Source of the DNA: Octopus vulgaris
Taxonomy: Eukaryota
Reading direction: 5' to 3'
DNA: 64,000 nt
Assembly: GCA_951406725.2 (NCBI GenBank)
Contig: OX597824.1
Span: 67,952,001-68,016,000 of the forward strand
The position numbers and the translations under genes were made by a program. Under the pieces are notes generated by a model. It was given only the letters and a program-made list of their open reading frames with translations. It was not told the origin of the DNA and did not search any database. This document shows, in pieces, positions 16,801-19,800 of this stretch. Numbering within the stretch: position 1 is the first letter of the stretch; every line of letters starts with the position of its first letter.

Positions 16801-19800
16801 AAAATCCAAGTTTTTTTTCTTAGTGAAAATGTCGCGGGTTTAATACAGAAATTTACCATACTTTTGTTGTTATTTAGCCTCAAAATAACCCTGAGAAAGA
16901 AAACCTATCACCAAAGACATTCCAGCCTTCAGCAAACCGTCTTTTTAGGGATAATCTAGGATATTACGGACAGTGGGCGTGTGATTTAGGTAGGGGCTTA
17001 CTTTGGCTGCTATTTTTAGCGTGTTGAGCGACCAAGTAGAGGCTCTTTCATTAGTTCAATTGCGTAATGAGATGTTTTTTACACATATATGTAATATGTA
17101 TATATATCATTGGCAGAAGTTAGAGAGTTTCGTTTATTGGCACTTATCAAACACGAATTTGGCCCTTGTCACTCTGTAAACTCTGCGGATAAAATTTGTG
17201 CATTGGGTCCCTTCCATCAAAAACCGGTGATTATCGTGCGCTGATGACGGGTCAATACCCAGAAACTGCAGTCCGTGCGTATCACTTAGGTTGACGAGTG
17301 AAAGATGACCTCCATTTGCAAATACCTATAGGGCACAGAAAGTGTGTCAATAGCCAGCTCCAGAAGATGTTCTCCTGGGGCTACAAGCTACAGTAACATC
17401 CACCCTTAGTGGTTAGCCATATTTAGATGGCAAATATACTTCACATTGTCGTGCAGCTACTGTCTATACCTCGTTCAGAGATTTATTATTGCTTGTATAC
17501 ACCTTTTCAAGATCAGTAACGAAAAGTCACTGGAGAAAAGGTTATAAATATTTGCTATGGGACACTTTCATTGAAAACCAGTGTTTATCGTGCGCTGATG
17601 ACGGGTCAATACCCAGAAACTGCAGTCCGTGTGTATCACTTAGGTTGACGTTGGAAGGATGACCTCCCTTTGCAAATACCGATAGGGCACAGAAAGTGTA
17701 TCAATAGCCAGCTGGAGAAGGTGTTCTCCTGGGGCTACAAGCTACAGTAACATCCACCCTTAGTGGTTAGCCATATTTAGATGGCAAATATACTAGATAT
17801 ATATATATAGTGAGAGATAGATAGATAGATAGATAGATAGATAGATAGATAGATAGATAGATAGATAGATAGATAGATATATAGATAGATACATACAAAA
17901 TAGTCTATAATTGTATACATAATTATAATGAGGGGTCGGCTAATTGTCCGCGTACTGAATTAGAAATAGGCGCTAATGTCTTTTCAACTACCATACAAAC
18001 ATCCGAGAAAAAACACTTTTTTTATTGTATGGAAAAGGGAAAATGATGAATCAAATAGACAACGGTTAATTCTTAATTGGGAAGCCTCCAGACCGAAACT
18101 CGTCCACTCTCTGAAAATAATACAAATCTGGATTCATCTGAGAAAATCACTCTATCCCAAAATGGACTGGATTTTTCTGACATCTCTTTAGCCCACTTCT
18201 TTCATTTCATGATATTAATTGGTTAAGGAGAAGTTTTCTTCTATCTTCTCGTCCATAATACCAAAGATTATGCAGACATGTAACACACGTTGTTGGATTA
18301 ACTTCTAGCTGTTTTGCAATGTCAGAAGCCTTCGAACGGGGTTAGTTTTCCACAATTCTCTTCAAACAGCGAAGCTTCCTTTCCGAGGGCCAAATTCGGC
18401 CGGGACGACAATCTGTTGATTTTTTTCCTTGGCTTTTGAATTGCACTATAATTCTATTAACAGTAGCAAGAGGAATTTGAAGACTTTCGGCAATTTTTCG
18501 CTGGCAAAGACCAGCCTCAGATTGCCTAACAAAACCACATCTTTGAAAATCTGACAGTTCTGCTGAATTTTTTGTGTATGGCATGGTAACTCTTGGCAAA
18601 TCTTTAATATAATGGCACCTGGAATGAAAAAGAATAATTACATTGTAAATTCTACACCGCTGAGAAGATTTTAAGACTCTTAGATCAGAAATTTTGAAAA
18701 TTAAAGGTGTCTATTTACTTCCTGCATATCTGTGTATGTGTATCTAATATACCGAGGAGACACAGCTTGTGCATCTTTCGCAGAAATTAATTTATGTCAT
18801 CAATTGAATTTGAAAGTTTTAATAAGCAAGGTCCATCCTAGCGTCATCTGTTAAATTGATTTCTTTTTTTCGCCACTTGAAGAATAAAAAGTATAGAGTG
18901 AAGTGGAGACCAAATTTGTTTTCACTTTTGAACATTTCGTTTGATATTCTTGCGAAATTGGTTTATAGTCAAGTTGTGATAGATTCTGTGGAAACTGTCT
19001 ACCATTTTTCAATCGCTATTTTATAATCATTCATCATTGATTCACCGAACGTTCAATATTTTGACTTCAAACTTTCAATATTATAACCTCAGACTTCCAA
19101 TATTTTATTAAGATAGTCACGTGGGACAAAACTGATGACCCACAAATAATTTTTTTCATATTAGTACTTTTCATTCATAATTCCATGTTCGACGAAATAA
19201 ACAGACAAGTACTTAGTTTTTTTATACTAGCATAAACTCGAGCTCATATTAAAACATCATTATTTTTATATGTTTTATATCATTATATTGATGTTGTTCT
19301 ATTTTCCCGTTTTGTTAAATGAACTGTTGGTGTAGATACGAAATTTATTTTCACATCTAACGTATCTTTTTCTTTCAGTGAGCAGTAACACGACTGAAAC
19401 TATCATCCTTATTTTGTACATCTTAGCAGTTGCTGAAGTGAGTGGTGCCTCCTGTGGTGATTACATTTACATTTCAGAACTATATCCAACACACATACGG
19501 TACGTAATCATCGTGTATATATATATATATATATATATATATATATATATATATATATATATATATAATATATATATATATATATATATATGTTCAAAAT
19601 GTGACCGTTGGCGATTTTTTTCCTCCGTCTTTCCTCGTTTGGATCTTTCCTTTTCCAATGTTTCTGACGAAGAGCTACGCTCGAAACGTTAAACCCTCCA
19701 TCTTTCCTTCCTTCGTGAGCGTCCAATAATTCTATATTTGTTCCACGTCCTCTCGTTGTTGTGTTTTCTCTTTTGGTTTTCATGTTTGGATAAACTATAT

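Follow-up and report, generated by a model that had tools for sequence, protein, structure and literature searches.

The closest described counterparts of the repeat analysed here are the non-LTR retrozymes of metazoans, with the 350–390 bp repeats of mussels and the 353-nt unit of the axolotl as our comparison system (Cervera and de la Pena 2020, PMC7229834). As they appear in the excerpted text of that report, these elements share with the octopus repeat a type I hammerhead, a non-coding unit (354 bp in octopus) with a GC content below 45%, a short palindromic stem III, a mollusc host and a well-folded monomer. Unlike them, the octopus family is known from DNA, consists mostly of partial tandems with a single hammerhead rather than of long arrays, and carries a C·A mismatch at positions 10.1–11.1; its unit also contains a predicted internal promoter, for which the same excerpts name no counterpart. 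Internal small-RNA promoters have been described in two other hammerhead repeats, the Schistosoma satellite (Pol III) and newt satellite 2, whose snRNA-type Pol II promoter is a precedent for the one predicted in octopus (PMC2220036, in the passages on these satellites). Compared with these, the octopus promoter is predicted from a motif and a spacing common to U1 and U2 genes, and a TATA-like box and a T-run are present as well.

In their insertions, members of the octopus family resemble derivatives of Penelope-like elements, which in the sections on end structure are characterized by 5' truncation, partial tandems, inverted 5' copies, a tail at one end and a bias towards microsatellites (Li, Clavereau, Pollet; Craig et al. 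2021, PMC8557442). In contrast to those derivatives, the octopus family has no ORF, its tail measures 40–55 rather than 30–40 nt, and no autonomous partner with common ends was found. The main text of Li et al. (bioRxiv 10.64898/2026.07.22.740005) links retrozymes to Penelope ends, and the octopus locus falls within its two-hammerhead definition. A further comparison is with target-specific LINEs of the Tx1 clade, namely Tx1 (target Tx1D), Keno (U2) and Tx1-Mar, so that targeting of both transposons and U2 is already known (Kojima 2015, PMC4494074; PMC4640811). A LINE found at the octopus repeat shares with them APE and RT domains, a fixed 3' junction, 14–17 nt duplications, tandem insertions and a target range comprising U2 and another mobile element; unlike those portrayed in the excerpts of these papers, it inserts at U2 +1 and leaves the full gene downstream, it also inserts at the predicted start of a hammerhead repeat, and it has companions with ORF1 only.

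A partial tandem in an intron

The window is the whole stretch of Octopus vulgaris DNA that was analysed (64,000 nt). A direct repeat of 249 nt (17192–17440 and 17546–17794, 91% identity) with a spacing of 354 defines one full unit and 70% of a second, or 1.7 units (Table 1), and bears out the head-to-tail, non-coding repeat of about 354 bp proposed in a first-pass annotation of this DNA; the repeat is absent from TRF output. The locus has the attributes of a non-LTR retrozyme: its longest stop-free frame is 81 aa, it apparently lacks LTR, PBS and PPT, its GC content of 43% is below 45–50%, and a type I hammerhead occurs in each of two consecutive units, whose period of 354 falls within the range of 150–450 bp. 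Measured against the family majority sequence, the two copies differ at 15/354 and 13/249 positions, with one difference in common, and the insertion is therefore not recent. The locus is thus an aged 1.7-unit copy of a dispersed family, 4–5% diverged from consensus; nothing singles it out among family members, and it is no special array.

Table 1. Positions of the retrozyme locus, its predicted elements and its surroundings in the window
Feature	Coordinates	Strand	Remarks
Second family member, more decayed	7665..7985	-	main piece 7865-7665 (-), inverted piece 7889-7985 (+)
Host intron	15276..19378	+	GT..AG; MFS/SLC22-like gene, bounding exons 15190-15275 and 19379-19499
Unit copy 1	17192..17545	+	354 nt, 43% GC; 5' truncation ~30 nt downstream of the expected position of the promoter element
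Hammerhead 1, type I	17227..17285	+	core CUGAUGA 17241-17247; bulged stem I, 11 pairs; predicted cut after 17273
Predicted monomer	17274..17627	+	354 nt from cut site to cut site
ATCAGT, predicted proximal sequence element	17512..17517	+	58 nt before predicted start; motif and spacing as in U1/U2 genes
TATAAATA box	17543..17550	+	27 nt before predicted start; if functional, would favour Pol III
Unit copy 2	17546..17794	+	249 nt; terminates at the family's 'short' 3' end class
Predicted transcription start	17570..17586	+	ATTG here, ATCG in the family; 17-nt site duplicated by Tx1-like LINE elsewhere
Hammerhead 2	17581..17639	+	core as in hammerhead 1; weaker stem I; predicted cut after 17627
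(TA)n/(GATA)n microsatellite	17795..17895	+	flanks the 3' end; typical for the family

The first-pass annotation had placed the repeat on the sense strand of an SLC22 intron. Strand and GT..AG intron stand; for the gene label, the matches of the remaining exons to MFS_1/Sugar_tr are fitting but no proof. The exons that bound the intron are homologous to exons of an MFS/SLC22-like paralog on the opposite strand (40203–59939, -), and a stray exon-like copy lies downstream of the host gene (26368–26439, +). The sense position of the retrozyme within the intron is probably incidental. No RNA run is on record as containing the sequence. In four runs that were presumed to be RNA, contigs include short pieces of the family; none spans the locus or covers the upstream exon, none has a splice joint or a locus-specific bridge, and start or end sites are not legible in them, a result that is uninformative rather than negative. 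Immediately upstream, a 1.2-kb foldback element of nested inverted repeats (15987–17183, arms 81–100% complementary) stops a few bases before the retrozyme copy. Its role as separator of a missing 5' part of the unit was ruled out, as no such part is split off.

Both units contain the motif CTGATGA (17241 and 17595) followed by GAAA-CTGCAG-TC, with C17 of the GUC at 17273 and 17627, and the 33-nt hammerhead core is identical between them, so that the annotated type I cores and the 354-nt distance between their predicted cleavage sites were confirmed. The same applies to the palindromic stem III: ACUGCAGU is a perfect palindrome, for which a dimer helix is predicted at -11.1 kcal/mol and a monomer hairpin at +2.9. 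The bulged, extended stem I that was also annotated can form, with 11 pairs, in hammerhead 1, where it accompanies a stem II made of C·A and then three G-C pairs; in hammerhead 2 it is damaged by a U·U mismatch in its distal part and a third G·U in its proximal part. Although the type I core pairs C3-A9, G12-A15.1 and U16.1-H17 are present together with the three stems, the conserved G10.1-C11.1 pair that closes stem II is missing in the window subfamily, and both window hammerheads have a C·A mismatch there. Comparison with Rfam, which had been suggested as a check, matched no hammerhead model even at E<=10. Folded in isolation, the window motifs yield no hammerhead in the MFE structure, and their stability does not exceed that of shuffles (z -0.98 to +1.04). 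The fold of the predicted monomer is more stable than those of 100/100 shuffles (z -3.1).

A dispersed family and its insertion ends

Copy number was assessed across the 2.8-Gb genome, and the unit proved to belong to a dispersed family, in answer to a question raised by the first-pass annotation: a DNA similarity search gave 4399 first-look candidates, of which 40 were scored, and the 33-nt core had 75 exact matches over most large contigs, against 0 for the reversed core used as a control. Among these 75, the window is the only locus with two exact cores in same-strand tandem. Two same-strand hammerheads were found at 0/29 core-picked and 0/27 3'-end-picked loci and at four similarity-picked loci, the window included; most family copies hold a single hammerhead. 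At another locus (L036:3946–4746, G000:C23), approximately 16 tandem 50-bp copies, each spanning the unit start and the hammerhead up to stem III, are joined to a two-hammerhead copy.

The core accumulates 13 mismatches in 640 positions versus 24.7 expected from base-matched flanks, and is thus kept better than its surroundings, a point on which the annotation had staked the ribozyme. Stem III is palindromic, with differing sequences, in 42/56 sister-subfamily types, in which position 3-8 is C-G in 49, U-A in 4 and mismatched in 3; stems I and II were pre-selected, since the parse of these types demanded that they pair. Overlapping locus counts at 10.1-11.1 are 64 for C·A, 14 for U·U, 11 for U-A, 7 for A-U, 2 for G-C and 3 for others. 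The window subfamily has C at 10.1 in 26/32 copies and A at 11.1 in 32/33, whereas its sisters have U·U, U-A, A-U or G-C. The G10.1-C11.1 pair is described as highly conserved in hammerheads in excerpts of PMC4209133 and PMC3088659, the latter of which also reports a natural hammerhead with U·U at this position. From these patterns, the lineage looks like a working dimeric hammerhead. Because C10.1·A11.1 departs from the conserved G-C pair, the C·A subfamily may cleave poorly, and its predicted activity is uncertain. We found no description of retrozymes from cephalopods in the main texts covered by our literature search; cephalopod motifs could be listed in the supplements of PMC7229834 and of the Li preprint.

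Leaving out 14 duplicate loci and one locus with the 50-bp array, we analysed the ends of 122 segments of at least 50 nt. Of these, 108 terminate in two clusters, at unit positions 247–258 or 288–313, the tailed 3' ends having a tail of 40–55 nt; 22/32 inverted pairs combine one short with one tailed end. A TA or CA run lies within 16 nt of 58/108 ends, compared with a window background of 7%, with the reservation that alignment ends blur into TA runs. More than one unit, crossing the cut site, is present in 38/122 segments. Among the 50 simple 5' ends that were left after removal of four with LINE or N junctions, none piles up at the cut site (0.7 expected, a weak test), and three lie at the predicted start (unit 24–26; P 0.009, post hoc).

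Fixed 3' ends, 5' truncation, partial tandems, inverted 5' pieces, a tail at one end and microsatellite bias are all found together, and the family was probably spread by a Penelope-like reverse transcriptase. The clustered ends, inverted pieces and microsatellite flanks likewise support the earlier identification of a retrozyme with Penelope-like mobilisation. More-than-unit copying of circles has been proposed by Cervera and de la Pena (PMC4209133). A comparison that covered one abundant Neptune-like family, a member of which adjoins one copy (L009), found no autonomous Penelope-like partner with the ends of the unit. The Neptune-like family was rejected in this role: it bears a small hammerhead of its own and does not resemble the unit in sequence. 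The window also holds a broken Penelope-like RT with a GIY-YIG remnant (21095–22270, -), which we take to be Neptune-type from its linker; for a family related to it, at least 150 matches were obtained, and the 3' UTR of that family contains a separate small hammerhead with U3-A8. An RT fragment with a GLYRDD motif (35700–36038, +) is presumably Naiad-type.

A predicted snRNA-type promoter and LINEs at the start

The motif ATCAGT lies at about -60 in 11/12 U2 starts without a LINE tail (two clusters) and at -57 to -59 in 20/20 U1 loci, which were examined as a prediction after U2; 18 of these U1 loci belong to one cluster and 2 have other flanks, so the U1 evidence amounts to roughly two independent promoter types. 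In the retrozyme unit ATCAGT stands at -57 from the ATCG marked by the LINE (-58 in the window), and in the sister hammerhead subfamilies at -55 to -60. A hammerhead repeat downstream of a U6 copy (L323, G000:C1), which BLAST does not align to the unit, carries the motif at -59 from an ATCGC start. The motif precedes the core by 75–100 nt in 32/65 hammerhead contexts versus 0/65 control windows, many of the misses being 5'-truncated copies, and its background rate is 0.002 per 6-nt window. It is missing from 20/20 U6 loci, though many of these are pseudogenes.

The unit therefore contains the genome's own predicted PSE motif at the spacing of U1 and U2 genes, the arrangement of a SNAPc-type promoter, and because this spacing matches, it is likely that the unit holds its own built-in snRNA-type promoter, which would be active in master copies. 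Transcription of the family is better explained by such an internal promoter than by host genes. The start itself, at unit position 25, is a prediction from the LINE junction and the motif spacing, and ATCAGTG..TCACTG could also persist as an RNA hairpin. A TATA-like box at -27 and a T-run directly after the tailed 3' ends accompany the PSE, so Pol III is possible for the unit; PSE plus TATA selects Pol III in mammals, according to the excerpted PMC6004067. Among the matches listed in our literature search, none holds both retrozyme and snRNA promoter.

A full-length LINE (ORF1, APE, RT, zinc finger) joins the unit at position 24–25. From its domain order and similarity, it is a putative member of the Tx1 clade. 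What follows its best 30 copies is a hammerhead, of the window subfamily or a sister, in 18 cases by pattern (20 by eye), a complete U2 start in 4 (one Rfam-confirmed), a duplication and another LINE in 5, and something else in 1; with more than 20% of copies at one target, and with APE, RT and zinc finger, this is the profile of a target-specific element. Three full-length copies have a 17-nt duplication beginning at the unit start. An ORF1-only element with a zinc knuckle, a companion that is presumably HAL1-like, directly precedes a hammerhead in 5 of the first 30 loci. At 36/48 similarity-picked loci, compared with 232/5000 controls, and at 24/30 loci taken in contig order out of 72 exact tails, a hammerhead core follows the 3' end of this element at a distance of no more than 45 nt; several hammerhead subfamilies were hit, with 15–20 nt duplications. 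Since 63/125 pairs with a LINE identity of at least 85% have targets less than 70% alike, some of them through target truncation, repeated insertions rather than one inherited chimera are indicated.

As ATCG..YCGG is common to both targets of the full-length element, sequence recognition is the simpler reading of its targeting. No evidence that a LINE exploits the ribozyme was seen among the junctions analysed, and we found no literature on Tx1 elements that target hammerhead repeats. Aiming at the catalytic core was rejected, as the junctions lie 15–38 nt upstream, at distances that depend on the LINE subfamily, and U2 +1 is a further insertion site of the full-length element. Targeting of U1 starts by the ORF1-only element was likewise rejected, its copy in the U1 cluster sitting in the spacer. 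So was L187 as the ORF2-bearing partner of that element: its relatives end 235 nt earlier, have another tail, and in 27/30 cases target a SINE-like sequence.

Several further LINE arrangements were encountered. In 27/30 copies of a different ORF2-bearing family (L200–L226), the insertion point is the same, at the head of a repeat; that this target is SINE-like is our reading, Rfam having matched nothing for the single copy tested. Head-to-tail arrays of at least five ORF1-only elements, 1.8 kb each with open 457-aa frames and a different tail (L195, L196, L228; G000:C4), had no hammerhead at the array ends examined. At one 5' junction (L092) the ORF1-only element starts with about 20 nt that match the 5' end of U1 snRNA, a U1-derived head. 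An ORF1-only copy (L110/L143) and an ORF2-bearing copy of another family (L199) have a further target in common; it lies some 45 nt upstream of CTGACGA, a motif that may represent another type of hammerhead. A composite of a LINE 3' end, a full unit and a second ORF1 element (L033:2950–4800, G000:C24) has the 3' end of the family and a CA run at its terminus, which suggests that LINE-retrozyme composites can be copied via a Penelope-type route.

How the locus may have arisen

We consider it probable that the window locus is an aged, more-than-unit copy of an animal non-LTR retrozyme, likely inserted by a Penelope-type enzyme and likely to have an snRNA-type promoter in its masters. This proposal builds on the dispersal, end structure, stem covariation, promoter-motif spacing and LINE insertion site presented above, and its mechanism would run as follows. 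SNAPc-type initiation would take place 25 nt ahead of the core of the hammerhead, and transcription would continue into the following unit; the hammerheads of successive units would pair by their palindromic stem III and excise a unit-length RNA containing the promoter of the next unit; the monomer would then circularise, or uncut multimers would persist. A Penelope-type RT would prime near a (TA)n/(CA)n site, at either of two fixed points, and continue copying beyond the cut site, so that partial tandems with random 5' ends and with inverted 5' pieces would result, the window copy being one such product. A circle and an uncut multimer would yield identical DNA products, and circularity therefore cannot be read from DNA. 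The 5' end of the window copy falls about 30 nt short of where the promoter of its first hammerhead would lie, and for this reason the copy would be no self-sufficient master.

The same geometry bears on a functional reading, in which the two hammerheads of the host pre-mRNA would both cut during transcription and set free a 354-nt RNA, linear or circular, with a possible effect on expression of the transporter gene. Because the sole promoter-like element sits between the hammerheads, element-driven RNA at this locus would carry only hammerhead 2, and production of a 354-nt monomer would depend on read-through from the host and on cleavage at both sites. The sense orientation in a GT..AG intron permits this, both cores are consensus-exact and form the only same-strand pair among 75, the dimer helix is stable and the monomer well folded, and mussel repeats of 350–390 bp form circles (PMC7229834, excerpted). 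Yet at 4–5% divergence we estimate that roughly 5% of loci would keep two intact cores, and this very pair was the reason for choosing the locus; moreover, copy 2 has a damaged stem I, and the C·A at 10.1-11.1 occurs in the two copies alike. In Xenopus, where 42–44% of retrozymes are intronic, cleavage occurred in 1/9 genomic dimers and the other eight were inactive (main text of Li et al., bioRxiv 10.64898/2026.07.22.740005). We therefore regard release from the host transcript as unlikely.

Two other histories would dispense with a copied multimer or with a separate family. The tandem could have formed on site, from a single inserted unit that was duplicated at the DNA level or underwent unequal crossover, the hammerhead of this subfamily being a non-functional relic; satellite-type amplification has been proposed in the main text of Li et al. 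(bioRxiv 10.64898/2026.07.22.740005), the 50-bp array at L036 is a case of hammerhead fragments in tandem, and the 10.1-11.1 pair is non-canonical. This is improbable, given that the two copies have just 1 common difference among their 15 and 13 from consensus, that more-than-unit copies are frequent genome-wide (38/122), and that the core is conserved and covarying. Alternatively, the units could be what 5' truncation has left of an autonomous Penelope-like element, namely pLTR remnants at its end, rather than a non-autonomous family of their own, in keeping with an end anatomy equal to that of Penelope-like elements and with the sister relation of Xenopus retrozymes to pLTRs in the same preprint text. 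However, the unit is preceded by a previous unit, by flank or by a LINE, never by a Penelope ORF in the same orientation, and with three protein queries Penelope matches occurred in 7/330 loci, none directly upstream on the strand of the unit; we hold this origin to be very improbable.

The reading that we prefer, an aged retrozyme copy with promoter-bearing masters, leaves the intronic copy of little importance unless host pre-mRNA is cut twice. Its wider interest lies in the family. Animal retrozymes are abundant in many tissues, and the literature found, as excerpted, names no source of their transcription and treats mobilisation as inferred; with a promoter motif taken from the U1 and U2 genes of the same genome, the question of transcription becomes testable. 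The insertion point of one LINE at both U2 +1 and the retrozyme start provides an independent handle on the start site, and its two targets offer a natural test of sequence-guided versus promoter-guided targeting. A bolder view, which we put forward as tentative and think rather doubtful, is that animal retrozymes are hijacked snRNA transcription units, each unit with a U1/U2-type promoter: hammerheads would cut read-through transcripts to yield a circle that contains its own promoter, a Penelope RT would go round this circle more than once, and a lineage of Tx1 LINEs would use the start as a decoy U2 gene. If true, a circle containing its own promoter would solve the loss of the promoter in retrotransposition, and a Tx1 LINE inserting at +1 would take over that promoter and gain a ribozyme-cut 3' end.
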